61,906 nt of DNA from a virus (lineage: Duplodnaviria; Caudoviricetes). The notes under the pieces were generated by a model that had not been told where the DNA came from, made no database searches, and saw nothing but the letters and a program-made list of their open reading frames with translations. The translations under genes were made by a program, and so were the position numbers. This document shows, piece by piece, positions 4,493-61,906 of this stretch (positions are counted from its first letter, which is position 1; every line of letters starts with the position of its first letter). The stretch covers positions 1 to 61,906 of IMG/VR virus record IMGVR_UViG_3300033994_001593; one strand, written 5' to 3'.

Positions 4493-4768
4493 ATGACACC
4501 CGAAGACCTGTGCCAGCGATTCACTGGCGTTCATTACCGCGATTCAGCGTTTCGCCGCGCGGCCGACACGATGGATTGGAACAACCGCTGGCCGCTCATC
4601 GATCGCGATGGCTACCTGACAGGGGCCGTCACCGAGGGGGATGACTGCCTCAACGTCAACAACGAGGTGATGATCCTGCCGTGGGTGGCGAAGGCTGGAT
4701 GCTGGTCGATTGACTTTGAGGAAGGCACGGCCACCCCCACGCAGCCGGCAATTGCGGAGGGCGAGTGA
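4493..4768 (+). CDS. Hypothetical protein
   Basis: ATG after GAAGGGAGAAGG. Confidence 0.75.
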   Translation: MTPEDLCQRFTGVHYRDSAFRRAADTMDWNNRWPLIDRDGYLTGAVTEGDDCLNVNNEVMILPWVAKAGCWSIDFEEGTATPTQPAIAEGE

Positions 4769-4842
4769 TGACCGGACATGACTGGCTGATCGTGATGGTG
4801 ACGGGTTTGTTTTTCTTTTGGGCCGCAAGCCGCGGCGAGTGA
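4768..4842 (+). CDS. Putative 24-aa membrane peptide
   Basis: TGATG coupling, GGAGG upstream; MTGHDWLIVMVTGLFFFWAASRGE; fills the gap. Confidence 0.4.
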   Translation: MTGHDWLIVMVTGLFFFWAASRGE

Positions 4843-4866
4843 TCTTCAACACAGAAGGGATGCACG

Positions 4867-5121
4867 ATGAGAGCGAGTGACTCAATCAAGTTGGCGATGG
4901 TGAAGAAGGCGGCGAGCCGCCTGGTGGATGCGATCATGCAGGACGAGGGCGGCTTCAGCCTCGACACCCTGCACCGCATGACTGAGTTGGGCAAGGTCGC
5001 AAGCCTGCCCGATGACGAGTCGGTCGTGGCCGTGACCAAGTGGCACATGAAGTCCACGGGCGAGGAGCCGCGGTTCTGGGGCGGCGGCGTGGCTGAACAG
5101 ATCGGGATCAAGAGCGAGTGA
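4867..5121 (+). CDS. Hypothetical protein
   Basis: ATG after GAAGGGA. Confidence 0.75.
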   Translation: MRASDSIKLAMVKKAASRLVDAIMQDEGGFSLDTLHRMTELGKVASLPDDESVVAVTKWHMKSTGEEPRFWGGGVAEQIGIKSE

Positions 5122-5188
5122 TGCCAGGGTTCTCGCCCACCTGGGCGGGCTGGCAGGATCGATTGGTTTCTAGATGAAAGGGTTCGAC

Positions 5189-5440
5189 ATGAAGACGGTT
5201 GAGAAGACGGCGGCGAAGAAGCCGGAGCTGATTGAGACTGAGCGGAAGATGCTGGAGTTCATCGCCCAGACCATCGACCGCCACGGCTATCAACCCAGCA
5301 TGAGAGAGATCGCGAAGGAGTTGGGATACGCCAGCCCCGGCTACATCCCGAAGTTGGTCGAGTCGGTGGAGCGGAAGGGCTATGTGTCGGCACAGCGTGG
5401 CGCTCGAGCCATCGTCTTCAACTGGAGGGAGTTCGTATGA
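5189..5440 (+). CDS. LexA-like winged-HTH DNA-binding protein without peptidase domain
   Basis: E..MLEFI...HGYQPSMREIAKELG...ERKGY resembles LexA N-terminal domain; start could be 5174. Confidence 0.85.
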   Translation: MKTVEKTAAKKPELIETERKMLEFIAQTIDRHGYQPSMREIAKELGYASPGYIPKLVESVERKGYVSAQRGARAIVFNWREFV

Positions 5441-5856
5441 TCCACGTTGCAGCACACAAGGACGGAGACGTTGAGGCGATTGTGCATCGACTCCATTTCC
5501 CCGGAAAGAACACCGGCTGGCTGGGGGTTGGTGAACACGACAACGTCTGGCTGGTCATCCGCGGATGGGGGTACTGGATCACGCATCTGCCGCGGCTAGC
5601 CGACGATCTCACTGATGGGCAGCGAAGAGCATCGCTCATTCGTGAGGTGCAGCAGATTGCCGATGGTGTGATGGCTACCGAAGGCTCAATGGATGAAGCG
5701 TTTCGTCATGCAGCCGATGGGCTGCGCGATGGAAGGGCGGGGTACAAGATCTTTTACATCGGCGGCCAGCCTGCCGGCGTGGACTTGGACTTGGCTAGAG
5801 AGGCGGCGAAGAACTGCGTGAGGAGACACCTGAGAACGGAGGGAGAAGAGCGATGA
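5437..5856 (+). CDS. Hypothetical protein
   Basis: ATGA overlaps on both sides, GGAGG RBS. Confidence 0.75.
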   Translation: MIHVAAHKDGDVEAIVHRLHFPGKNTGWLGVGEHDNVWLVIRGWGYWITHLPRLADDLTDGQRRASLIREVQQIADGVMATEGSMDEAFRHAADGLRDGRAGYKIFYIGGQPAGVDLDLAREAAKNCVRRHLRTEGEER

Positions 5857-6626
5857 GCATCTGCTACGGATACGGCCGGCATTCCACGAAGAAGCAGAGC
5901 ATGACCCGTGAGGTGCAGGAGTCGAGGACTCACGACCACTGGCAGCGCGTGCTGCGGCCAGAGGGCGTGGCGTGGGGCGGGTTCATGTACGATCCCGCCA
6001 CCTCTGCGGGGAAGCCGTTCTCCGAGCGGGAGGCGGGCCGGCAGTTGTTCTTGATGGCACGGCCTGGTGATCACATCGTGGTGACCAAGTTGGATCGACT
6101 GTTCCGCAAGTTGCTCGACGGTGTCAGCACCATCGAACAACTGGAGAAGCGAGGCGTGAACGTCCACGCCCTCGACTATCCCATCGCAGCGAACGATGCT
6201 ATCGGCAGGCTGATCCGCAACCTGTTGATCAGCATGGCTGAACTGGAACGCGAGTTGGCGAAAGAGCGCACTGAAGCGGTGTACCAACACCGCTTGGAGC
6301 GTGGCCTGCCAGCGAGCAAGGGGTGTGCGGTCGGGTGGAAGGTGATGTCGCGGTCAGACGAGGGCGGCAAGGCTCATCGATACTACCGCGTGGACGAGGA
6401 CGAGAGAGCGATGGTCGAGAAGATGATTGAACTGCGGGATGCCGGTGAGTCCTACGATGACATCGCCCTCTGGACGATGCGTCAGCGTGGGGCGAAGCGG
6501 ACATTCCCGACAGGGATCATGGCGAAGTGGGCGATTGAGGCGGGCCTCGCCGGCTGGCCGAAGATCGGTGGGTATCGTTCGTTCTTTAGACTCCAGCAGA
6601 CCGGCGAGCTGCTGGCCTATTGCTAA
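5853..6626 (+). CDS. Serine recombinase (resolvase/invertase family)
   Basis: YGRHST catalytic motif, GDHIVVTKLDRLFR, AELERE...ER helix E. Confidence 0.92.
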   Translation: MSICYGYGRHSTKKQSMTREVQESRTHDHWQRVLRPEGVAWGGFMYDPATSAGKPFSEREAGRQLFLMARPGDHIVVTKLDRLFRKLLDGVSTIEQLEKRGVNVHALDYPIAANDAIGRLIRNLLISMAELERELAKERTEAVYQHRLERGLPASKGCAVGWKVMSRSDEGGKAHRYYRVDEDERAMVEKMIELRDAGESYDDIALWTMRQRGAKRTFPTGIMAKWAIEAGLAGWPKIGGYRSFFRLQQTGELLAYC

Positions 6627-6638
6627 GAAGGGGGATAA

Positions 6639-6980
6639 GTGATGGCACGAAGGAAGAAGTACAAGCTCGACACCTGGGCGCCAGCGTTCGGGTGCTGGAA
6701 CGAAACGGAGAGCGAGGCGCCGCCGGCGGCGTCCACGTTCCTCGCAATGTGGACTGACAAGGGCAAGTTCGGAACCCTTGGTGATTGCTGCTGCTACTAC
6801 TACGATGCCGATGGCAAGAAGGTGGATCCCGACGAGAAGCCCCACGCCACCATCCGCTACTGGCAGTTGCGTGGGGATAGGTTCGTGGAGGTGCCGACTC
6901 CCGACCTCTGGTGCGAGGCGCGGTTCGTCATCCCCATTGGCAAGGCATGGGCGAAAGCCCACGGCCTCGACCACGCCTAG
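6639..6980 (+). CDS. Hypothetical protein
   Basis: Start after GAAGGGGGA; last + strand early gene. Confidence 0.7.
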   Translation: MMARRKKYKLDTWAPAFGCWNETESEAPPAASTFLAMWTDKGKFGTLGDCCCYYYDADGKKVDPDEKPHATIRYWQLRGDRFVEVPTPDLWCEARFVIPIGKAWAKAHGLDHA

Positions 6981-13082: not shown

Positions 13083-14672
13083 CTATCGTGAGCGTTGTTT
13101 CTGCAAATCTCTCCTTGCTACCTCTCTCCGTATTGCCTCGACATGAATGCGGTTCTTGCAGTTGGATTCGTTGACCACCCACCGGAGATATCCGGTATCG
13201 ACGGTGCGAATCTTCTGCCCTTTGAACTTGCCGAACAGCATGTGATTTTCTATGTACCAAGTGCGGCGTGGGTTCTCGGGCCGCTCCGCTTCGGCAAAGA
13301 CATCCCTTTCGTATATCGCGAACCGCCCCTGCGCTGTCAGCCGTTTTCTCTGCTCGACCTCGAGGGCGTGACGGGCGGCCTCCTCGCGGGCGATCGCAGC
13401 CCGCTCGGCTTCGATGACGGGATCGAGGGCGACGGCCTCCTTGCGGCCCTCGGTGGCCTTCTTGACCCGCTTCAGCAGCTCGCCCTCCAGCTCGGGGGCT
13501 AGGACATCCACGGCCGAGCGGAGGTCGCAGTGCCTCGAGGTGTCGGTAAAATCGAACACCTCGGTGAACGGCTTGGCCGACGCGGCGATCGCAGCTCGAC
13601 GCTCCTCGGCGGTGTGCAGGCCGTCGATCACACCAGGCAGGGTGCGGGTGCCGCGGCCGAACATCTGGATGTAGAGCGCCTTGCTCTTCGTCGGGCGGGC
13701 GATGAACAGCTTTGCCAGTGGCGGGAAATCCCAGCCCGTGGTCAAGCAGCCGACGTTCAAGATCACGTTGTTGTCGCCCTGCTCAAAGTCCCGCAGATGC
13801 TGGCGGCGCTCGAGCGGATCCATCCTTGAGTGGACGATCGAGGCGAAGATGCCCCATCGGGCCAGCACCTCGCGAAGCATTTCCGCATGCTTGATGCTTT
13901 GGCAGAAGACCACGCTCGGCTTGCCGTCATGGTGCTGCACGATCAGAGAAGCCACGGCCTGGACGTTCGACTCCGACCGAAGCAGGGCATCTACCTTGTC
14001 CTGGTCGAAGTCACCGAATCGCCCCTTGAATGCCGAGAGGTCGAAGTCCTCGAGCAGAACCGTCCAGAGCTTGGTCGGGTTCAGATAGCCGTCGCTCACC
14101 GCGGCCTGGTACGGGTAGTCAAAGGCCACGGGGCCGTACCACTTCGTGAGAGGATCTCCCGTCCCACGCTGCGGGCTGGCCGTCATCCCCACGATCTTCG
14201 TGCCTGCCTCGCGGAAGTAGCCCAGCATCTTGAGAGCGGCGGGCGTGTAGTTGAGGTGCGACTCATCGATGACCAGCAGCTTGGTCTTGCCAAGGAACTG
14301 CTCATATCGCTTGCGAGAGAGGAGGCTGGCGTAGCAGGCAGATGTCACCCGCTCACCGCTCTTCAGCGCCCCCTGCTCAATACCGCACGGGATCCCTCTC
14401 GATCTGAATCGGGCGGCCGTCTGCCCGACCAGATCGATAAAGGGGCCGCAGATGATCGCACCATCATGCGCGTCCATCGCATCGATGAGAGCGATCGCCA
14501 CCTCGGTCTTACCCGTCCCAGTAGCCTGGGTGATCAGACATGAATCGTGCGAACGAAGCATGTCCACCACCGCATCGACGGCCTGCCGCTGGTACGGGCG
14601 AAGGTGAAAGCCAGCCGTCTTGGCCGGCTCACCCTCCAACCGAAATAGCATGTTGTCATCCATGACGATCAT
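13083..14672 (-). CDS. Superfamily 2 (DEAD/DEAH-like) helicase
   Basis: LRPYQ, ATGTGKT, DESH, TAS, TGWD, QMFGRGTR; C-terminal FGKFKG...YLRW module. Confidence 0.93.
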   Translation of the reverse strand: MIVMDDNMLFRLEGEPAKTAGFHLRPYQRQAVDAVVDMLRSHDSCLITQATGTGKTEVAIALIDAMDAHDGAIICGPFIDLVGQTAARFRSRGIPCGIEQGALKSGERVTSACYASLLSRKRYEQFLGKTKLLVIDESHLNYTPAALKMLGYFREAGTKIVGMTASPQRGTGDPLTKWYGPVAFDYPYQAAVSDGYLNPTKLWTVLLEDFDLSAFKGRFGDFDQDKVDALLRSESNVQAVASLIVQHHDGKPSVVFCQSIKHAEMLREVLARWGIFASIVHSRMDPLERRQHLRDFEQGDNNVILNVGCLTTGWDFPPLAKLFIARPTKSKALYIQMFGRGTRTLPGVIDGLHTAEERRAAIAASAKPFTEVFDFTDTSRHCDLRSAVDVLAPELEGELLKRVKKATEGRKEAVALDPVIEAERAAIAREEAARHALEVEQRKRLTAQGRFAIYERDVFAEAERPENPRRTWYIENHMLFGKFKGQKIRTVDTGYLRWVVNESNCKNRIHVEAIRREVARRDLQKQRSR

Positions 14673-14920
14673 CTCCAGTGGTCGGCCCTACTCCCTACCC
14701 ACCGGGACTTCTCCGTCTCCTCGCTCCAACTCGACCGCAGCCTCTGCGTTGCTGCTGCTATCTCGTCGGGGCTTGGATCGTCGAGTTCGTTTCCGAGCAG
14801 GCGATGCTCGAAGAACAGGCCCAGGAGCGTCTGGTGGCTCATCCCGTGGCGCTTCGCCACGATCCCCACCTTCGTCTCCCGGCACTCTTGGAACAGCCTC
14901 TGCACCTCCTGTGCTTCCAT
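14669..14920 (-). CDS. Hypothetical HTH-like protein
   Basis: GGAGGG RBS; DPSPDEI...WSEE motif. Confidence 0.65.
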   Translation of the reverse strand: MEAQEVQRLFQECRETKVGIVAKRHGMSHQTLLGLFFEHRLLGNELDDPSPDEIAAATQRLRSSWSEETEKSRWVGSRADHWR

Positions 14921-15161
14921 CTGCCAATCCCTCCATGAAGAAAGCGGACATCCTTTCCGCGAACATCCCACGCAGGATGTCGTGTTCTGCGAGCAACCGA
15001 CGAGCGTCTGCCTTGAGCGAAAGCAGGGCCGTCATCACCAGCTCGAACTGCTCTGGGTCATGCATCACGAACTGGTCGGCCGACGAGGCGATCTTGTAGG
15101 CCGCGTCACCAGCGATGAGCATCCTTTGCTTCAACGCCAAGAGTTCTTGTGGGGCGATCAA
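14688..15161 (-). CDS. Hypothetical protein
   Basis: TTG start overlapping ERF stop, GGAGG RBS; C-terminus overlaps next gene. Confidence 0.6.
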   Translation of the reverse strand: MIAPQELLALKQRMLIAGDAAYKIASSADQFVMHDPEQFELVMTALLSLKADARRLLAEHDILRGMFAERMSAFFMEGLADGSTGGAEAVPRVPGDEGGDRGEAPRDEPPDAPGPVLRASPARKRTRRSKPRRDSSSNAEAAVELERGDGEVPVGRE

Positions 15162-15850
15162 GCAGCACCTCCCGTCTTGGCGGGCTTCGCACCGGCCTTC
15201 TCCACCGCCGCCGTGATCTCTGCGATCCGCTTCTCTGCCAGCTCGACCAGCTCGGGAAGGTCGGCGGGGTTCAGCTCCCCGGCCTCCACCTTCTCACGAA
15301 CCTTCTCAAGCTTGGCCTCGACGGTCTTCACGTTGGCCGCCGCGGTGATGGCATCCTTCGCCATCCGCTTCATGTCGGCCCAGGCCACGGCCTTGGTGTT
15401 GTCCACCGCAGGCTCGGCCTCCATCGCCGGCCCATCGGTATCAGTCTCCGCGGCCAGCCCAAGCAGGGCTTCGATGGCGGCTCGACGCATCAGCGTCATC
15501 GCAGCCTTCCGCTTGTGGATGCTCTGGTACTGGGGGATCGGCAGCGTCGAGGTGACGAACTCCCCAGACCCATGCTCCAGCACCGCCACGGCGTAGACGC
15601 CCGTCTCGTCATAGCCGTAATCACAGTGCAGCCAGAGGCCGTTCTGCGACAGGGCCTCCTTGGTTGCCGTGTTGATTGCCGTGAGGCTGGCGTAGCGGTA
15701 CTTGCGGCCATCCTCATCGACGCCGGTGCTGTCCAGCTTTACCGTCTGGAACTCGGCCGTGGCTTTCGCCATAGCCTTCGTGATCTCGCCGGTTGTTGGA
15801 CTCTTCTCGCGATAGACGCACATATGCGTCGGCTTCTGGATTACTCCCAT
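15158..15850 (-). CDS. erf: ERF family ssDNA-annealing protein
   Basis: YRYASL...L..NGL...HGSGE...RR...LLGLA..DTDG; TAATG coupling to exonuclease. Confidence 0.85.
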   Translation of the reverse strand: MGVIQKPTHMCVYREKSPTTGEITKAMAKATAEFQTVKLDSTGVDEDGRKYRYASLTAINTATKEALSQNGLWLHCDYGYDETGVYAVAVLEHGSGEFVTSTLPIPQYQSIHKRKAAMTLMRRAAIEALLGLAAETDTDGPAMEAEPAVDNTKAVAWADMKRMAKDAITAAANVKTVEAKLEKVREKVEAGELNPADLPELVELAEKRIAEITAAVEKAGAKPAKTGGAA

Positions 15851-16797
15851 TACCAATCACTCCCTTCTTCGAGCATGTAACGCGGACAATACAGCTCATG
15901 GATTTGCCCGTAGTCCTCGGGCGTCCAACAGTCCCACTCCTTGCGGCGTTGGATTTCGTTAAGCAGGGCGAGGCAGCGGCGCCGGCCCCTGGCGACGATA
16001 ACGTCGGGCAGTCGTGCCACATGGCAGTGGTACGGCTCGACCGTCGAGCAGATGATGAACACCATCGAGTGCGGTTCCCACCCAGCGGCAACCGCAGCCT
16101 CGCCGTAGAACGCGGCCTGGATGTCATAGCGCCACTTGCGGACGCTTGAGTGAAACGTCCACCGCGGATCTACATCGGAGGTGGTCTTGAAGTCATAGAT
16201 GAACTTCTCGGTCGCACCGTCGCACCGAACGCGACAGTCGTGGCCGTGCCACTTCCACGCGATGTTGAACTCGCGATCAACCGTGTCATCAAGGATGCGA
16301 CGAGCGGCGCCGTTGTTCAGAATCTGCCGCGTCTGATTCCACAATTTGTTGTGGTCAGAAGGCGAGATAGCCATCACGCCTGGAGGCAGAGTCTTTATGT
16401 ACTCCTTCGCCTCTTTGCCAACCTGTCCGGTGACCGTCAGCTTCTCGACGGGGATCGGCTTGACGTTTTGCCAGAACAGGCCGTCGCCAAGTTCACCCCA
16501 TTGGTGGAGCAGCGTCCCGAATGAGAGGGCTTCGCTACTTTTGGGGGGGGCTATCCCCTTAACGTACCTGCGGTAGAATGCCGCTGGAGAGAGCGCAAGC
16601 TCTTTGAGTTGGGAGGACGAGATTCCTGGTCGAGCGTGGTATTCCTCGTTCGAGCAGTGATCGATGACGCAATCAGAGTATTCAATAGCAGCGGCCGGAC
16701 TTGAACCGGCGACACCCGGCTTATGAAGCCGGGTGTCGATCTCGACTGCTATCGCTTCCTCTGTTGCGTCAGGCTGGGAAGCCCTGACGCTAGGCAT
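15850..16797 (-). CDS. Exonuclease VIII-like PD-(D/E)xK nuclease (DUF3799-like)
   Basis: YHA..GISSSQLK, FGTLLH, RCD...DFKTT, YDIQAAFY; TAAGGAG RBS at ATG 16797. Confidence 0.9.
   Translation of the reverse strand: MPSVRASQPDATEEAIAVEIDTRLHKPGVAGSSPAAAIEYSDCVIDHCSNEEYHARPGISSSQLKELALSPAAFYRRYVKGIAPPKSSEALSFGTLLHQWGELGDGLFWQNVKPIPVEKLTVTGQVGKEAKEYIKTLPPGVMAISPSDHNKLWNQTRQILNNGAARRILDDTVDREFNIAWKWHGHDCRVRCDGATEKFIYDFKTTSDVDPRWTFHSSVRKWRYDIQAAFYGEAAVAAGWEPHSMVFIICSTVEPYHCHVARLPDVIVARGRRRCLALLNEIQRRKEWDCWTPEDYGQIHELYCPRYMLEEGSDW
16685..16752 (-). other. Truncated tRNA(CAT)-like element lacking a D-arm; candidate attP core
   Basis: Anticodon arm CCGGC-TTCATAA-GCCGG, T-arm GCCGG-TTCAAGT-CCGGC, acceptor-like ATAGCAG/CTGCTAT; ~200 bp from the integrase. 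Confidence 0.75.
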
Positions 16798-16945
16798 TAT
16801 CCGCTCCTTACTGGGGTGGTTCTACTAGTGAGGGGGCGAACCGCTCGCCGTTATCCCCTCAAGGTGCCGGTGCTTTCCTGTGTGACCGACAGGATTGTCA
16901 GCCACGCTACCTAGTTGCATGGACGCCCACGCGGGAGTCGAAGAA

Positions 16946-17821
16946 ATGATCGCAACCAGAACGGCACAATCTTTTACCAACGAGATGACCCTCCTTGATT
17001 TACTAGACCGCTATATGGCGGCCGTCGAAGTCAGTCCGCGGTATCGAGAATCCCTTCTCCGGACGGTTCGACGGGCCAAAAATAGCGGCCTCAAAGAAAC
17101 CTGTCAACTAACGACAGAAGAAGTGAACAAGTTTCTCGCGGGCCTGAGTGTCGGCCAGACAACAAGGCACAATATCCGCCGGGAACTACTGACACTTTGG
17201 CGGTTCGCCCACGACCGGGGGTTCGTTGAGGAGTACCCGACCCGCATCCGGAAGATACGGGCGACGTTCGCCACCCCGGTGACATGGGAGCTGACGCGGC
17301 TCTCCCAAATCATTGAGGCGGCAGAGGGCGACGAGACGCCCATCAGCTCAAGGATTCGCCTTGGGCGGTGCGATGTGATCCCAGCCTGGGCTGGCTTGGC
17401 CTATGACTCTGGGATGAGATTCAGCGACATTCACAACCTGACGAAACGCAGCTTCCGAAATGACTGCGTTGCTGTCACAGCATCGAAGACCGGCAAGCCG
17501 CTGGTGCGTGTGCTTTCGGAGCGGACGCAGCATGACGTTGCCAAGCTCTTCATGCATAGTCCTGACGGGACGCTCTTCAAGTGGCTGCTGCCCAGGCGGC
17601 GAGCCTTCCACATGTGGCGGGCGTTCTTGGACGAGCATGGGTTCGGTGGATCCACGAAGTGGTTCAGACGAGCTGCCGCCACCGCGATCGAGCAGCTCAA
17701 GCCTGGAGCCGCCACCGACTTCCTTCAGCACTCGCATCCATCGTTAGTGAGGCGCCATTACCTTGACGCCACCCAGGCTGCGATCCCGATGTCGCCGCCC
17801 CCGATCCGGAAGCCGAGGTGA
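16946..17821 (+). CDS. int: Tyrosine recombinase / integrase
   Basis: GMRFSDI (R), KTG (K), KWFRR (R), LQHS (H), RHY (Y); start uncertain (16946 or 16985). Confidence 0.88.
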   Translation: MIATRTAQSFTNEMTLLDLLDRYMAAVEVSPRYRESLLRTVRRAKNSGLKETCQLTTEEVNKFLAGLSVGQTTRHNIRRELLTLWRFAHDRGFVEEYPTRIRKIRATFATPVTWELTRLSQIIEAAEGDETPISSRIRLGRCDVIPAWAGLAYDSGMRFSDIHNLTKRSFRNDCVAVTASKTGKPLVRVLSERTQHDVAKLFMHSPDGTLFKWLLPRRRAFHMWRAFLDEHGFGGSTKWFRRAAATAIEQLKPGAATDFLQHSHPSLVRRHYLDATQAAIPMSPPPIRKPR

Positions 17822-18073
17822 CTACCGCTTGAGAACGGACTTCACCGGCTTGGGCGGGGCCGGCCGCGGCGGATGGGCCACTTGCCGTGGCTGGCCGGGG
17901 ATGATCGGGAAGTCAGCCTCGACAGGGCCAGCCGGCCTTTCGCGAGGGGCGAGCAGGCCGTCGAGCAGCTTCCGCGGAGGGAGCATCCCGTCGAGCCACT
18001 CAAGGTTCTCCATGTTCTGGTCGGTCGGCTCACGGCGAAGGCCGCTACGCATTGCTTCAATCGGGTCTTGCAT
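17822..18073 (-). CDS. Hypothetical Pro-rich protein
   Basis: Last ORF of the late operon. Confidence 0.6.
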   Translation of the reverse strand: MQDPIEAMRSGLRREPTDQNMENLEWLDGMLPPRKLLDGLLAPRERPAGPVEADFPIIPGQPRQVAHPPRPAPPKPVKSVLKR

Positions 18074-18076
18074 GGT

Positions 18077-18343
18077 TCACCACTTGCTGCGCTGGCCCCA
18101 GTAGCGGGCCGTAAAGAAATCGGGGTTCGGGTTCACGGCGTTGTTTCGAGCGTAGTACGCTTTGCGCCGCTTCTGATCTTTGGTCGATATGGGATTCGGC
18201 CCAGCTCCCTCCGCACCCTGCTCACCAAAGCGGATGATCTTCTCCTGCCCGTCCTTGCAGGCTTTGACCACATGCGAGTACCGCTTGTGGTCGGGCGTCT
18301 TCTTCGGCTGGTTGCACACCAGCTCGCGGATGATGTCGCTCAT
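18077..18343 (-). CDS. Small basic phage protein (DUF5754-like)
   Basis: IIRFG...RRKAYYARN...ARYW...KW; N-terminus MSDIIR. Confidence 0.7.
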   Translation of the reverse strand: MSDIIRELVCNQPKKTPDHKRYSHVVKACKDGQEKIIRFGEQGAEGAGPNPISTKDQKRRKAYYARNNAVNPNPDFFTARYWGQRSKW

Positions 18344-18546
18344 GGGAACCTCGGAGCGATGACCGATACCGTGACGCCAGCAGGGATATTGACGCTCGAG
18401 GTGGGAGAGACAGGGGAGGGGCGATACCCACCGACAGGAGCGAAGCTCTGCTCGCGAACCGCCCGCATCGTCCGGTTCATCTGACGCTGGACGGCGAACG
18501 ACTCACGCTCTGTGTCTCGCGAGAGTTTCCGGATGATGTCGCTCAT
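18340..18546 (-). CDS. Hypothetical protein
   Basis: ATGA overlaps; N-terminus MSDIIR. Confidence 0.7.
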   Translation of the reverse strand: MSDIIRKLSRDTERESFAVQRQMNRTMRAVREQSFAPVGGYRPSPVSPTSSVNIPAGVTVSVIAPRFP

Positions 18547-27404: not shown

Positions 27405-27784
27405 AGGTCGGCGGCGAGTGCCGTTACATGCGTGGCCTGCGCGATGGATGTGGTCACGCGAACAGACCATGACGAGGATGGAAGGATCAGATTGTCATAG
27501 GTGCGGGTGACGCGAGTAGTCGCGACCGTATTTGACGAGGTGGCAGCGGAGATCGTCACCTCGTCAAACAGGAATGTGCTGGTGCCGTCATGCAGAAAGA
27601 CGCGCACGATTGCGGCAACAGAGGTGGCGGCGCACTTCACGACCAATTCCGCCACGCGAGTTCCGGCGGCAACTCCGGTGATGACGGTTCCGAAGTTGGT
27701 CGGGGCCGTGAGGCTTGTGTCCTGAGTGCTGATTGAAACGCTGCCGATACGCGGCGTGACTGCAAACGAAGGGGAGGTAGCCAT
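27401..27784 (-). CDS. Tail-associated beta-rich protein
   Basis: Ser/Thr-rich, TAATG coupling within the fibre cluster. Confidence 0.7.
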   Translation of the reverse strand: MATSPSFAVTPRIGSVSISTQDTSLTAPTNFGTVITGVAAGTRVAELVVKCAATSVAAIVRVFLHDGTSTFLFDEVTISAATSSNTVATTRVTRTYDNLILPSSSWSVRVTTSIAQATHVTALAADL

Positions 27785-29757
27785 TAGCGGAAGGTACTCC
27801 AGAGATAGAGGTTGACGGCGGCGCGTGCGTTGTCCGAAAGGCGCGAATCAGAGAGTGTGCCAGAGGTCAGATCGCTGGCGTTGGTGCTTCCGCTGGTGAC
27901 GGTTTTCCAAGTTTGATCGCCAGCGAGGAACGTGGTGGAGGTGGCCGAGCCGCTGCCGAGCCGGGCCGTGGCGATTACACCGCTCTGAATCGCACTTGCG
28001 TCATGCGTATGAGAGAGAGGCGTGCGAGCATCCGACAGGCGGGCATCATTGCCGATGCAGACGCTACTGGCATCGCTGCCAGTTGGAATTCGGGAAATGT
28101 CTAACTCCCCCGAAACAATGTCCATCGCGTTATGCGCATGTCCGGAGGCGGCTTTCTCTGACAGTTGCACCTCCAAGCCCGTCACTTCGCTGATCATGTG
28201 ACCGTGGACGGCGGCGGCGTATGAGCCGCTTGGCTGCTTGGAATTCAGCGCGGCCTGCAAGCCAGTGGTGTCGGCAATCACATGCTGATGCGAGGTCGCG
28301 GCCTTGGCATCGAGCAACGATTGCACCGCAGACACGGCGCGGGTGTTCGTGAAATAGAGATTGGTGCTGCCTTCGGCAATCGCGTCGGTCGAGCCGGGGG
28401 AGGCGACGATCTCGACATACTGCGTTCCTGCCCACCGATAAATCTTGCCGTTGTTGATCGTGAGGTACAGTTTCCCCTCTTCACCGCTTGTGGGCAGAAG
28501 GGATGCGTTGTCCACTTCGATCACATCATCAACGTAGGACGGCAGTTGCGTGGCTGGCACCTTGCCGCCGACGAGCGTGGCGTAATCACCAGCGGTCTGC
28601 TTGTTGTCGAGGGCCGCTTGCAAGCCAATGATCGCGGAGATGCCGTGATTGTGGACTGACTGTGCGTAGGAACCGGAGGGCTGCTTGGAATCTAAAGCCG
28701 CCTGCAACCCAGTGGTGTCGGCAATCACATGGGAATGGACGGTCGCAGCGTAGGAACCGGCGACTTGCTTCCCGTCCAACGCTGCCTGCAAGCCATCGAC
28801 GGCACTGATTATGTGGGTGTGTACCGCATTAGCGTATGAGCCAGTGGGCTGCTTGCCGTCGAGTGCGGTCTGTAGCCCGTTGACCGTCGAGATCGCTTGC
28901 TGCCCAGTGTGCGTTGCGCGATCCCGCAGTTGAGCGTCGGTCGCGTTGGCCGTCGCCCCGCTCGCGATGCCGTCGAGTTTCGTCTTGTCGGAAGACGCAC
29001 CCCACCATGCCTCGATTGCGGATCGCACCACCGCATAGGCCAGCCACCGCGAGGCGGTTGGATCGTAAGTGATCTGGATCGCGCTGTTGACCGGGATCAC
29101 AACATCGCCCCCGGTGGGCGAGATCACGCGATTGGGTGCCGCCGACAGGGTGGATTGGTGTGCGATGGTGATGGGGAACGAGCCGACGTTATGCAGCGTG
29201 ACCGACGAGCCTGCCGATGCGACGAAGCCGGTGATCGTGCGCGGCGCATCCGACGAGAGGCGGGCGTTGTTCGCGCCCACCGACAGAGCGTAGTTGTTCT
29301 GGTCGGAAGTGATCGTGGTCGGTGAGTGGAAGGCCGCAGCGGAACCCGCGAGGTACACACCGAAGAATGCGTCAGTCGCCGCCGGGGCCGCGGCAAACGT
29401 GATCTGCGAGCCACTCACCGTGTAGGCCACTTCCGGCTGTTGCGTCACGCCGTTGAGCATGACGAGCAGCGAGGCTGCGGTGGCGGGCGTGACCGAAGTT
29501 GTGCCGATGACGAGATCAAACGTCGTGGTCGAGCCATTGAACGTGAGCGAGTTGAGAGTTCGGTTGAGGGCCGACGCGCCGCCAGAGCCGCCCACGCCAC
29601 CCACGATGTACGGCAGCGAGTTGTATGCAGTGGTGCCGTCACCAACCTTCAACTTGTTCGTGTCCGTTTCAAATACGATCTGCCCCGCCAACGGGACTTC
29701 GTTGGCTGCGGTCAGGGCGGCAAGGGTGCCGCGTCGTTGTTGGACAATGGGGGGCAT
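27784..29757 (-). CDS. Long tail fibre protein
   Basis: Mtd/hyaluronidase-like N-terminus (RRGT...ETDT..LKVGDG); HxH...GLQxALDxKQ repeats; 23-bp DNA repeat at 28262 and 28709. Confidence 0.85.
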   Translation of the reverse strand: MPPIVQQRRGTLAALTAANEVPLAGQIVFETDTNKLKVGDGTTAYNSLPYIVGGVGGSGGASALNRTLNSLTFNGSTTTFDLVIGTTSVTPATAASLLVMLNGVTQQPEVAYTVSGSQITFAAAPAATDAFFGVYLAGSAAAFHSPTTITSDQNNYALSVGANNARLSSDAPRTITGFVASAGSSVTLHNVGSFPITIAHQSTLSAAPNRVISPTGGDVVIPVNSAIQITYDPTASRWLAYAVVRSAIEAWWGASSDKTKLDGIASGATANATDAQLRDRATHTGQQAISTVNGLQTALDGKQPTGSYANAVHTHIISAVDGLQAALDGKQVAGSYAATVHSHVIADTTGLQAALDSKQPSGSYAQSVHNHGISAIIGLQAALDNKQTAGDYATLVGGKVPATQLPSYVDDVIEVDNASLLPTSGEEGKLYLTINNGKIYRWAGTQYVEIVASPGSTDAIAEGSTNLYFTNTRAVSAVQSLLDAKAATSHQHVIADTTGLQAALNSKQPSGSYAAAVHGHMISEVTGLEVQLSEKAASGHAHNAMDIVSGELDISRIPTGSDASSVCIGNDARLSDARTPLSHTHDASAIQSGVIATARLGSGSATSTTFLAGDQTWKTVTSGSTNASDLTSGTLSDSRLSDNARAAVNLYLWSTFR

Positions 29758-59971: not shown

Positions 59972-61543
59972 CTACCGTTTTACGGGCGTGTCAAGCGCAG
60001 CCACCAGATTTATCCGTTCACCGATCCACCGCATGACAGGAACCGCCATTGAATTGCCCAGAGCCTTGTACCGCGGCCCGTCTGCGGCGGGCTTCTTCCG
60101 GTACTCCACCAGCGTGTAATCGTCGGGGAAGCCCTGGAGACGCTCGCACTCGCGGGGCGTGAGGCGGCGAACGGCCATTGAGGACTCTATTGCGTGAACG
60201 TCGTGGCCGTGCATGGAGTTCAGCGTGTATGACGGCCCGCCAGCCTGGGCAACGGAGTTGCTCTTGCTGCCCTGCATATTGACCATTGGCACCTCGGCGC
60301 CGCAGGCCACCACCGTTGTGGCCCGAGTGTCGCCAGAGTCGAAGCAGCTCATCGTCGGGCTGACCTCACCAGGCACCCATGTCTCGTCATCGGTGTTGCT
60401 CTGGGCGCGTTTGGACTTAGTGAATGCGACCGCCGGAGGGGAGGGAATCCCCAAGCCGCTGCCCACTCGCACCGTTGGCGATGTGCCGTCCTCGAAAACG
60501 TCACCCCCGTGAGAGCCGAGATTGGACTGAAAGGCCACGGCGTCCTGTGCTGGCTGGGCCACCACGTTCGACGGCCTGCTGGGCCTGTTCTCGCCCTCTG
60601 CCCGCAGCGTCCCGGCGATATCGTCTTTCATCCAGAAGCCTGGGCCGCTCTCTCGCATTGAGAGAACCTCTGGGGCCGGCTGGGCCACCACGTTCCTCAA
60701 CTGGAACACGCTGCCCTCGTTGGTGTATGTCCGCTGCTCGTTGTGGCAGATGGCGTGGGCCGGATCGTTGCTGAGAATCAGATGGCCCGCATCTAGATCT
60801 GCGTTGCTCGACCCGCCGTTCTGGCCGGCTCGAGCGACCACCGCCCCGACTACTTCGCCGTTTTGGCCGAGGGCGTTGAGCGGCTGTCCATCGCCGCCGA
60901 CGAAGGTGTATTGCTGCTCCTTCGCACTTGCCCCTCCAGTGCTTGCGCTAAGCGCTCGGGCAACTTGCGCCCCCGGCGTTCCGCGCGACGGAGGATCCCC
61001 GAACACGCTTTCGCGCTCAAAAAGTACCGCTGCTGCACGGCGCCAGTCTCCAAGGTGTGCGACAACGAACACACGACGGCGTCTTTGGGCGACTCCAAAC
61101 CATTGAGCGTCAAGCGTCCGGTAGGCCCACCCGTACCCGAGTTGCTCCAACGCCCCGAGGAAGGTGCCAAAATCCCGTCCTTTTCCACTACTAAGGACGC
61201 CCGGCACGTTTTCCCATACGATCCATTGGGGGCGCATGACTGAAGCAAGCTGAACGAATCGGAGGGCCAAGTTACCACGCGGGTCATCCAAGCCCCCTCG
61301 GAGTCCTGCGACTGAGAAGGATTGGCAGGGCGTTCCTCCGACCAGAAGTTCAACTGCTCCCCGGCCATTGAGCATTTCCTCCGTGATCTTGGTCATGTCG
61401 CCAAGGTTGGGATACCCAAAGTGGTGATCCACAACAGCGATCGGGAACGGCTCGACCTCACTCGTCCATGCACATTCCCAGCCCAGGGGCTTCCAAGCCA
61501 CATGGGCGGCACCGATTCCATCGCATACGCTGGCGTACCTCAC
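59972..61543 (-). CDS. DNA cytosine-5 methyltransferase, alpha polypeptide with long modular variable region
   Basis: CDGIG, GGTPCQ, WENV, QRRRR, RRLTP.ECERLQGF, ALGNS; GTG start 61543. Confidence 0.93.
   Translation of the reverse strand: MRYASVCDGIGAAHVAWKPLGWECAWTSEVEPFPIAVVDHHFGYPNLGDMTKITEEMLNGRGAVELLVGGTPCQSFSVAGLRGGLDDPRGNLALRFVQLASVMRPQWIVWENVPGVLSSGKGRDFGTFLGALEQLGYGWAYRTLDAQWFGVAQRRRRVFVVAHLGDWRRAAAVLFERESVFGDPPSRGTPGAQVARALSASTGGASAKEQQYTFVGGDGQPLNALGQNGEVVGAVVARAGQNGGSSNADLDAGHLILSNDPAHAICHNEQRTYTNEGSVFQLRNVVAQPAPEVLSMRESGPGFWMKDDIAGTLRAEGENRPSRPSNVVAQPAQDAVAFQSNLGSHGGDVFEDGTSPTVRVGSGLGIPSPPAVAFTKSKRAQSNTDDETWVPGEVSPTMSCFDSGDTRATTVVACGAEVPMVNMQGSKSNSVAQAGGPSYTLNSMHGHDVHAIESSMAVRRLTPRECERLQGFPDDYTLVEYRKKPAADGPRYKALGNSMAVPVMRWIGERINLVAALDTPVKR
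59977..59998 (-). promoter_or_regulatory. Conserved promoter motif, copy 3
   Basis: GCGCTTGACACGCCC-G-TAAAAC. Confidence 0.65.
60850..61368 (-). CDS. Nested alternative-frame MTase subunit (M.EcoHK31I beta-like)
   Basis: GGAGG RBS before ATG 61368; SLS..LE...RYFLS.KAC.GILRRA..RG..LP motif; wholly inside the MTase gene. Confidence 0.75.
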   Translation of the reverse strand: MAGEQLNFWSEERPANPSQSQDSEGAWMTRVVTWPSDSFSLLQSCAPNGSYGKTCRASLVVEKDGILAPSSGRWSNSGTGGPTGRLTLNGLESPKDAVVCSLSHTLETGAVQQRYFLSAKACSGILRRAERRGRKLPERLAQALEGQVRRSSNTPSSAAMDSRSTPSAKTAK

Positions 61544-61906
61544 GCCTGTCCAGTATCCGGCTCTGTCAAATGCAACAACGAAAAAACTGGGTGGGCCGGC
61601 CAAAGCCTCCCCGCAGCTCGAGACTGAAGGGGAGGGAACCCGCGGAGATGGCGAGCCGGTTTATCAGTCCGGTGCCGGCCACGGGTACGGTCGCAAGCAT
61701 CCGACCGCAGCTCGCACCGAGGTAGCGATCCCCGGTGTGCCTACACCTACCAGCGGGCCTTGCATTGCCCAGAGTGGGTCTGCCGCAGGGGGTGCCTGTT
61801 CAAGCGTATAGGCTCGCCTCTGACGGGTCAACCGCGGCGGGGGTGTCGAGATAGCCTCGGGGGCCGAACGGGCGGCAGAGGGCCAGCCAGGAGGCCCATT
61901 TGCAAA

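Follow-up and report, generated by a model that had tools for sequence, protein, structure and literature searches.

A probable tRNA-derived attachment site within the exonuclease reading frame of an uncultivated phage of Planctomycetota

Phage attachment sites (attP) that target tRNA genes ordinarily carry the 3' part of the tRNA from the anticodon stem onwards, restore the tRNA on integration and offer the symmetry of the anticodon stem as core binding sites; they normally lie in non-coding DNA beside the integrase gene int. The DNA described here, the IMG/VR virus record IMGVR_UViG_3300033994_001593 (Duplodnaviria; Caudoviricetes), raises the question of what becomes of a phage gene when such a site lies inside it. 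We refer to the whole stretch analysed, 61,906 nucleotides long, as the window. Unlike an ordinary tRNA-targeting attP, its tRNA-derived core is in frame in an open reading frame (ORF), that of an exonuclease, and this is conserved over a clade. A preliminary description made from the letters alone had reported the 3' part of a tRNA-Met/Ile2, lacking the D-arm, in frame in the exonuclease, a perfect 13-bp dyad at 16710-16738, a TAAGGAG ribosome-binding site followed by an ATG at 16797, and a divergent tyrosine integrase about 200 bp away. All of these structural observations were borne out by the analyses below.

The best explanation, to which we give a probability of roughly 85%, is that the window represents the entire genome of a temperate phage that infects freshwater Planctomycetota, with an attP inside the exonuclease ORF, next to the divergent integrase. 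The source record is a whole virus record of 61,906 bases, linear, with a CheckV completeness of 100% and one copy of the core. Matches to PHROGs comprised tail-fibre and minor-tail proteins (27784-29757) and a DNA methyltransferase (59972-61603). Completeness, the single core copy and these genes together point to an element internal to a free phage genome and not to the end of a prophage.

The core of the putative site is a 47-nt stretch (16686-16732, minus strand) identical to positions 27-73 of a tRNA(CAT), from the 5' strand of the anticodon stem to the discriminator A. When 46 nt of it (16687-16732) were searched in a collection of species-representative genomes, exact matches were found at 55 loci, 53 of them labelled as Planctomycetota lineages (Pirellulales, Planctomycetia, Planctomycetaceae, Planctomycetota, Planctomicrobium and 'Ca. 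Kuenenia'), one as 'bacterium' and one as Chitinophagaceae. A canonical tRNA 5' half (acceptor strand, D-arm and position 26) preceded the match in 52 of the 55, giving complete tRNA(CAT) genes; two of the remaining loci (L007 and L008) had non-tRNA 5' sequence and are of the attR type, and one (L038) was cut by the contig end. Phage-host identity started exactly at tRNA position 27 and stopped at once on the 5' side. Towards the 3' side it included the discriminator A in all 55 loci and ran 0-4 nt further, for a total of 47-51 bp; CCA is not encoded. With 55 exact genome matches, 52 of which are tRNA(CAT) 3' parts, the identity of the core with the host tRNA far exceeds chance. The phage sequence is canonical in its anticodon arm, variable loop, T-arm and 3' acceptor strand, but not in the 27 nt before them. 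A local search with the Rfam tRNA model RF00005 gave 27.5 bits, against a gathering threshold of 29, with the D-arm positions deleted, and no match was obtained over the whole window at that threshold.

This tRNA sequence doubles as predicted protein-coding sequence. The exonuclease gene (15850-16797, minus strand) encodes 315 aa of the DUF3799 / PD-(D/E)XK type, matching PF12684 (E 2.6e-15; 57.3 bits, cut-off 26) and PF12705 (E 6.4e-07; 30 bits, cut-off 22), and its residues 23-37 translate the core, reading RLHKPGVAGSSPAAA. The Pfam domain begins near residue 60, and E176, D193, D202 and K204, which we take to be the active site of this putative nuclease, are invariant in an alignment of nine exonuclease sequences. 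Translation would begin at the ATG at 16797-16795, six nucleotides behind the Shine-Dalgarno sequence TAAGGAG (16804-16810, minus strand) that can be read directly from the sequence.

The arrangement is not a one-off, since it recurs across a diverged clade of uncultivated phages. A protein search of IMG/VR returned two contigs with exonucleases 70% identical to that of the window, carrying the exact core in the same frame. Scanning for the exact core gave ten viral contigs of six sequence types, all with an exonuclease homologue (33-75% identity by tblastn). In every one of the ten the frame of the exonuclease runs through the core from an in-frame ATG 35-140 nt upstream, in most cases with a purine-rich, Shine-Dalgarno-like stretch. 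The relatives' leaders place 12-47 codons of varied sequence before the core and keep the frame. Because this set had been picked by the core itself, the search was repeated with an alignment of the exonuclease domain alone (A4, five sequences). A half-tRNA, consisting of an anticodon arm with CAT and a T-arm, then stood immediately before the domain in three of 80 loci, and these three were the closest relatives, L099 (71%), L100 (53%) and L101 (43%). L102/L103 (36%) had none at this place, nor had any of the 75 loci with 31% identity or less. As a control, the half-tRNA scanner gave five matches elsewhere in 908 kb. L100 and L101 have variant cores with the acceptor strand CGCCGCT, which is also found in the host tRNA of genome G362, and L101 further differs in its loop (TTCAAAT). 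Altogether, in 12 viral contigs besides the window an upstream ATG opens a frame that passes through a tRNA-derived core just as in the window, so that the putative intragenic attP is conserved over the clade.

The integrase gene (16946-17821, plus strand) encodes 291 aa from a likely start at ATG 16946, 214 bp from the core, and matches PF00589 with an E value of 2.6e-04. The divergent neighbour of the exonuclease matched the same family in all eight loci scanned (E 4.9e-07 to 5.4e-04); the curated cut-off was passed by three of these integrases, that of the window not being among them. R158, K181, R241/R242, H262 and Y272 are invariant among the eight when aligned, presumably as the catalytic set of a tyrosine recombinase, and in most of the eight the leading His of the HxxR motif usual in such enzymes is replaced by Lys. 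The integrases are about 290 aa long and a separate arm-binding domain is not obvious.

For such an enzyme the candidate core-type binding sites are the two arms of the inverted repeat around CAT (16710-16738), which a repeat search found to be 13 nt long and 100% complementary (16710-16722 and 16726-16738). At its centre lies the anticodon loop TTCATAA (16721-16727, minus strand), the presumed 7-bp overlap region for strand exchange, within which the exact cleavage positions would fall. The outer six base pairs of the dyad on the 5' side (16733-16738) extend beyond the 5-bp anticodon stem and are phage-specific; the six extending bases can pair with the variable loop and with the base that opens the T-stem. 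In two relatives (L072 and L076) nine of the 11 stem pairs outside the loop are kept. A weak direct repeat flanks the core, with one copy at 16552-16568 and the other, on the integrase side, at 16852-16868 (both plus strand; 14 of 17 positions match). These copies were considered as arm-type sites and stay candidates only, as their conservation in the relatives is not clear.

If the core is a working attP, prophages related to the window phage should be split at this point, and both kinds of junction were found in genomes: attL-type at L023, L079/L098 and L081, and attR-type at L008, L007 and contig C173 of genome G362. The attL-type loci run from host genes through a complete tRNA into an in-frame exonuclease remainder, with an open frame that reaches back no further than 17 nt before the core. 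L023, in genome G001, was found by tblastn of the window ORFs against the 55 genome loci. There the host genes LssY_C and PNPOx are followed by the complete tRNA and an exonuclease homologue (43% over 300 aa) whose alignment starts inside the tRNA. A TAG at tRNA positions 8-10 closes the exonuclease frame, and the next start is a GTG at 5047. The prophage remnant at L023 (noted at 5598-6350, minus strand) retains an exonuclease remainder that is open and has its motif intact; it continues into a resolvase-like fragment and then into sequence that other genomes have as host flank.

A search of 401 genomes of the same order gave eight with exonuclease matches at E <= 1e-10. In three of these (G001, G362 and G366) the match begins within a tRNA-Met(CAT) gene, at residue 20 of the query; there were six other exonuclease loci, and none of the three that were scanned had a tRNA. 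Contig C39 of G362 shows the tRNA followed by the exonuclease remainder (45%), ERF (33%) and helicase (58%) up to the contig end. On contig C173 of G362 two integrase homologues stand in tandem (52% and 48%), the nearer of them about 200 nt away from a partial tRNA whose sequence begins at position 27; the flank past this partial tRNA also occurs in other genomes, behind intact tRNAs. The attR geometry of L008 is the same, its distal sequence abutting uninterrupted tRNAs in L030, L032, L035, L045 and L047. At both of these attR-type loci the exonuclease frame upstream of the core is short, with a TTG or GTG start nine codons before it and GAGGAG 10-11 nt upstream. The integrase query had no match in G001 and G366, both of which are incomplete metagenome-assembled genomes (MAGs), so that absence is not implied. 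A tblastn match at L015 (36% over 86 aa) was considered as a fourth attL and set aside, as it probably reflects tRNA-encoded residues and lies in a native-looking flank family. As a separate observation, the tandem paralogous integrases, about 50% identical to that of the window, are placed at the attR end of the related prophages, at 1600-2472 and 2746-3666 in L008 and at 1178-2005 and 8-841 in C173 (L096); the window has one integrase.

The pair of junctions in G362 also bears on where strands are exchanged. Its attL and attR copies share only 20 nt, namely CA, the anticodon stem-loop and one G. Past these the copies part. The 3' part of attR is of the usual host type, whereas attL differs from it in variable loop, T-arm and acceptor strand; the acceptor strand of attL can still pair with the 5' strand of the host. 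Because the shared 20 nt are centred on the anticodon loop, the crossover would be placed there, with the 7-nt loop as the natural overlap, if C39 and C173 are the two ends of one prophage. The hybrid tRNA of L081 fits this crossover, since the T-stem mismatch that it carries lies in the portion expected to come from the phage.

Taken together, these sites suggest the following course. The integrase would bind the inverted repeat of the anticodon stem, 13 nt long in the window phage, and exchange strands within the anticodon loop. The outcome is shown by the sequences of the relatives: a working tRNA is rebuilt from the host 5' part and a 3' part brought by the phage, and the exonuclease gene is split at about codons 24-26. 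The beginning of the gene, with the presumed promoter region, the Shine-Dalgarno sequence, the ATG and some 25 codons, remains at attR beside the integrase, which stays whole. The rest of the gene comes to lie immediately behind the tRNA at attL, followed by ERF and the helicase, and its frame is closed there by the TAG at tRNA positions 8-10 and lacks a start codon. Since the integrated frame would be without a start and closed by TAG, the full-length exonuclease would be produced only from an excised or free genome.

Several results weigh against this reading. A lysogen of the exact window phage was not found: none of the 55 genome loci continued for more than 5 nt into the window flank, an exact metagenome scan of the core-exonuclease junction (16664-16699) gave no match, and a looser scan (16631-16652) gave two, both of them attP forms of the L076 type. 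The junctions at hand have their own weaknesses. L023 is a decayed remnant of 2.5-3 kb, and neither an integrase homologue nor a second copy of the core was found in its genome; this is decay by deletion, with the attR copy absent. The two junctions of G362 lie on separate MAG contigs and possibly come from different strains. As to the enzyme, the PF00589 score of the window integrase (21.3 bits) is under the 27.1 cut-off, and a PDB sequence search with it returned no relative at E values up to 1. Finally, a scan of 16400-17100 for sigma-70 promoters and intrinsic terminators gave no match, and promoters are therefore only presumed, from the geometry, in the divergent intergenic region between exonuclease and integrase (16798-16945).

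The genes behind the exonuclease raise a further objection. The ERF-family single-strand annealing protein (15158-15856, minus strand; PF04404, E 3.8e-09) likely starts at ATG 15850, overlapping the exonuclease stop (TAATG), and has its own GGGAG upstream. It is followed by a 157-aa ORF of unknown function (14688-15161, minus strand), which is kept in relatives, overlaps the ERF stop with its start (TTGA) and has its own GGGAGG, and then by a superfamily-2 helicase with the Pfam domains ResIII and Helicase_C (13083-14672, minus strand), the final gene of the block. No terminator was predicted between the tRNA and the integrated block in the scan of 16400-17100. As ERF and the next ORF have their own ribosome-binding sites behind the tRNA promoter, both may still be expressed in a lysogen, and to say that the operon is off may be wrong. 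The proposal of the preliminary description that integration silences exonuclease, ERF and helicase together is thus upheld at the sequence level for the exonuclease, which would have no start and meet a TAG, and is not established for the operon; silencing of the whole operon is doubtful.

Whether the split is of any use to the phage is a separate matter. The arrangement may have been selected, by tying the exonuclease to excision and by keeping the first gene behind a strong tRNA promoter untranslated in the lysogen; we put this at slightly less than an even chance. The stronger form, in which the clade shifted the exonuclease start beyond attP on purpose, so that integration serves both as a physical gate and as an insulator against read-through from the tRNA promoter, is tentative, and we doubt it more than we favour it. 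A rival that must be taken seriously, although we would not bet on it, accepts attP as real and sees the overlap as a neutral by-product of a compact int-attP-exonuclease module: gene splitting would have no regulatory value, the leader would merely tolerate the tRNA sequence, and the lytic genes would be repressed in lysogens anyway. The structure of the leader bears on both views. AlphaFold2, run on alignment A2, gave a mean predicted local distance difference test score (pLDDT) of 76 and a predicted template modelling score of 0.71, with residues 1-40 below a pLDDT of 50; the fold begins at about residue 43, which leaves residues 1-42 as a leader. This leader looks dispensable, since it is disordered in the prediction and neither its length nor its sequence is constant among lineages, and conservation of the site may reflect descent, since the order int-attP-exonuclease is inherited together in all relatives. 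The ribosome-binding sites of the downstream genes also suit a neutral overlap. Typical homologues, however, begin right at the domain: among 73 distant ones the largest possible extension before window residue 43 had a median of 0 aa and reached at least 40 aa in only three, so that the attP-bearing leader is an add-on specific to the clade and probably unstructured. Every sequence type of the clade, even at 33% identity, has retained a start upstream and reads across the core through frame-preserving indels, and a start just downstream of attP, which would be the simple solution, occurs in none of the 13 phage contigs.

The beginning of distant homologues at window residue ~43 could also be taken to mean that the exonuclease starts downstream of the core at a non-canonical codon and is left intact by integration, and ATT and ATC codons are indeed present at residues 38 and 45. 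We consider this very unlikely. No in-frame ATG, GTG or TTG occurs between the ATG at 16797 and about residue 142, that is, for some 100 codons past the core, and the ATT and ATC codons have no preceding Shine-Dalgarno sequence, whereas the strong upstream TAAGGAG-N6-ATG has an equivalent in the relatives. At L023, where it was checked, the frame at the attL junction is without a start as well. Even less probable is that the phage no longer uses the tRNA fragment, which would then be a scar left without function by an earlier integration or an imprecise excision. The missing lysogen of the exact window phage would fit a scar, but the core is identical to the host at 46 of 46 positions while the flanking coding DNA has diverged to 33-70% protein identity, the variant cores of L100 and L101 share their CGCCGCT acceptor strand with the host tRNA of G362, an intact integrase adjoins the core in every relative tested, and both junction types are present in genomes. 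Least credible of all is a functional phage tRNA-Met/Ile2 gene overlapping the exonuclease gene, which has in its favour the 74-nt tRNA-Met(CAT) called by ARAGORN (16686-16759, minus strand) and a stable local fold (z = -7.0) but fails on the sub-threshold Rfam score with its deleted D-arm, on 27 nt of 5' sequence that differ from the host tRNA and among relatives, on the absence of any ARAGORN call in the ten related viral loci with the same core, and on an acceptor-stem mismatch together with the missing canonical D-arm. Judged from its sequence, the full cloverleaf seen by ARAGORN rests on a chance pseudo-5' half; the segment so read (16733-16759, minus strand) is phage-specific, encodes leader residues 13-22 and is no tRNA.

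For the mRNA leader of the window (16680-16765, minus strand) and the same region of L072, L076 and L073 a D-arm-less, tRNA-like three-way junction is predicted (z -7.0, -2.4, -4.4 and -6.0), closed by base pairs between the 3' acceptor strand and a GCAG(C) further upstream. Such a fold might be a substrate of, or a decoy for, tRNA-processing enzymes, with covariation support lacking. We do not claim it as a feature, as L071, L075 and L070 fold differently. The acceptor-like closing helix seen in several lineages was likewise set aside, the upstream GCAGC stemming partly from shared descent and from identity to tRNA positions 24-26.

Beyond the locus itself, nearly all long ORFs of the window are on the minus strand. 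The gene order common to all relatives is a 1138-aa gene, a small gene, the opposite-strand integrase, attP with the exonuclease, ERF, the ORF of unknown function and the helicase. In the window the integrase and the next ORF (203 aa, 17873-18484, no Pfam or PHROG match) are the sole convincing genes of the plus strand, spanning 16946-18484; the 203-aa ORF is a candidate excisionase or regulator.

The environment of the phage was traced in public sequencing runs, 20 of which hold part of 16200-17300. All but two are labelled as lake water or freshwater metagenomes, and at least half of the sampled words of this interval are present in seven of the runs. In four lake runs the Logan contigs break at the core, with a summed depth of 278-657 in the core bins versus 2-13 in the flanks, and their loose ends cluster at 16683-16697 and 16727-16737. 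This peak and these breaks are what one would expect of a sequence shared by a phage, host tRNA genes and other elements, and cannot show junctions of the window phage itself; the core carries many alternative flanks in the four runs.

The host tRNA locus showed further traits of its own. Another mobile element is found at the same tRNA: L016 encodes a 713-aa large serine recombinase (4775-6916, minus strand; PF07508 and PF00239) that converges on the tRNA, with its stop about 18 nt inside the tRNA 3' end, so that the ORF overlaps the attachment region. The flank family of L016 recurs in L003, L007, L025, L026, L027, L031, L034 and L041, and the same flank is seen as a loose end at 16683 in all four lake runs. 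In about ten of the 55 genome matches the contig ends no more than 100 nt away (L007, L009, L026, L027, L034, L036, L037, L038, L049 and L056). Assemblies thus seem to break at the host tRNA, as would be the case for a locus with several alternative insertions in the population. At L023, a hairpin directly after the PNPOx-like gene (4653-4681), some 105-125 nt upstream of the tRNA, repeats the 11-nt stem arms of the phage dyad around a different loop, TTTTGAA, and the syntenic copy in L032 is imperfect; these hairpins could be an old att scar, a pseudo-site or a coincidence. Near-identical tRNA flanks (88-96% over hundreds of bases) link several MAGs that bear the name 'Candidatus Kuenenia stuttgartiensis' with lake MAGs labelled Pirellulales or Planctomycetaceae; L008, L022, L036, L048, L050 and L051 are among the loci concerned, and the species labels look unreliable.

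Genes that are altered by their own attachment site have been described before, and the recombination site of the archaeal virus SSV1 is, like the core discussed here, tRNA-derived. In mycobacteriophage BPs and phages of Clusters G, I, N and P, attP lies inside the repressor ORF, whose 3' end is removed on integration (PMC4557955). The likeness to BPs is an attP in a phage ORF beside a tyrosine integrase, with integration altering a protein of the prophage; the differences are that the split in the window phage would remove the 5' end of the exonuclease gene (promoter, ribosome-binding site, start and ~25 codons), leaving no translatable gene, and that its core is itself tRNA-derived and translated. 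In the integrases of the SSV type, from archaeal viruses and plasmids (SSV1, SSV2, pTN3 and pT26-2), the site lies within the integrase ORF itself; integration breaks this ORF up and only excision makes it whole again, and such self-disrupting recombinases are described as exclusive to archaea (PMC8371274). The window phage, by contrast, is bacterial, its integrase would stay intact, and it is the neighbouring exonuclease gene that would be split. The myxophage Mx8 is a bacterial phage with attP in coding sequence, within int, where integration yields a recombinant gene with a new int 3' end and changed specificity (PMC6070905). In Mx8 it is thus the 3' end of int that is altered, whereas the window phage would lose the 5' end of a different gene. 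The split gene is here an exonuclease, neither a repressor as in BPs nor an integrase as in SSV1 and Mx8. A search of full-text literature, with subscription papers and supplements outside its reach, gave no account of a tRNA attP in an exonuclease gene, nor of one in a Planctomycetes prophage. The site of the window phage, conserved in a clade of Planctomycetota phages, would add to the known intragenic attP sites one that is tRNA-derived and costs a lytic recombination gene its 5' end on integration.

If this is right, lytic recombination nucleases would be a third kind of gene remodelled by integration, after the repressors of mycobacteriophages and the integrases of archaeal viruses and Mx8. 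The exact attP/attB match also assigns 13 viral contigs to Planctomycetota hosts, and the natural attL/attR pairs would pin the crossover to the anticodon loop. The locus may thus offer a case of gene expression that depends physically on excision, and a purposeful gate, if true, would be a bacterial counterpart, serving a lytic function, of the archaeal genes that are split on integration.

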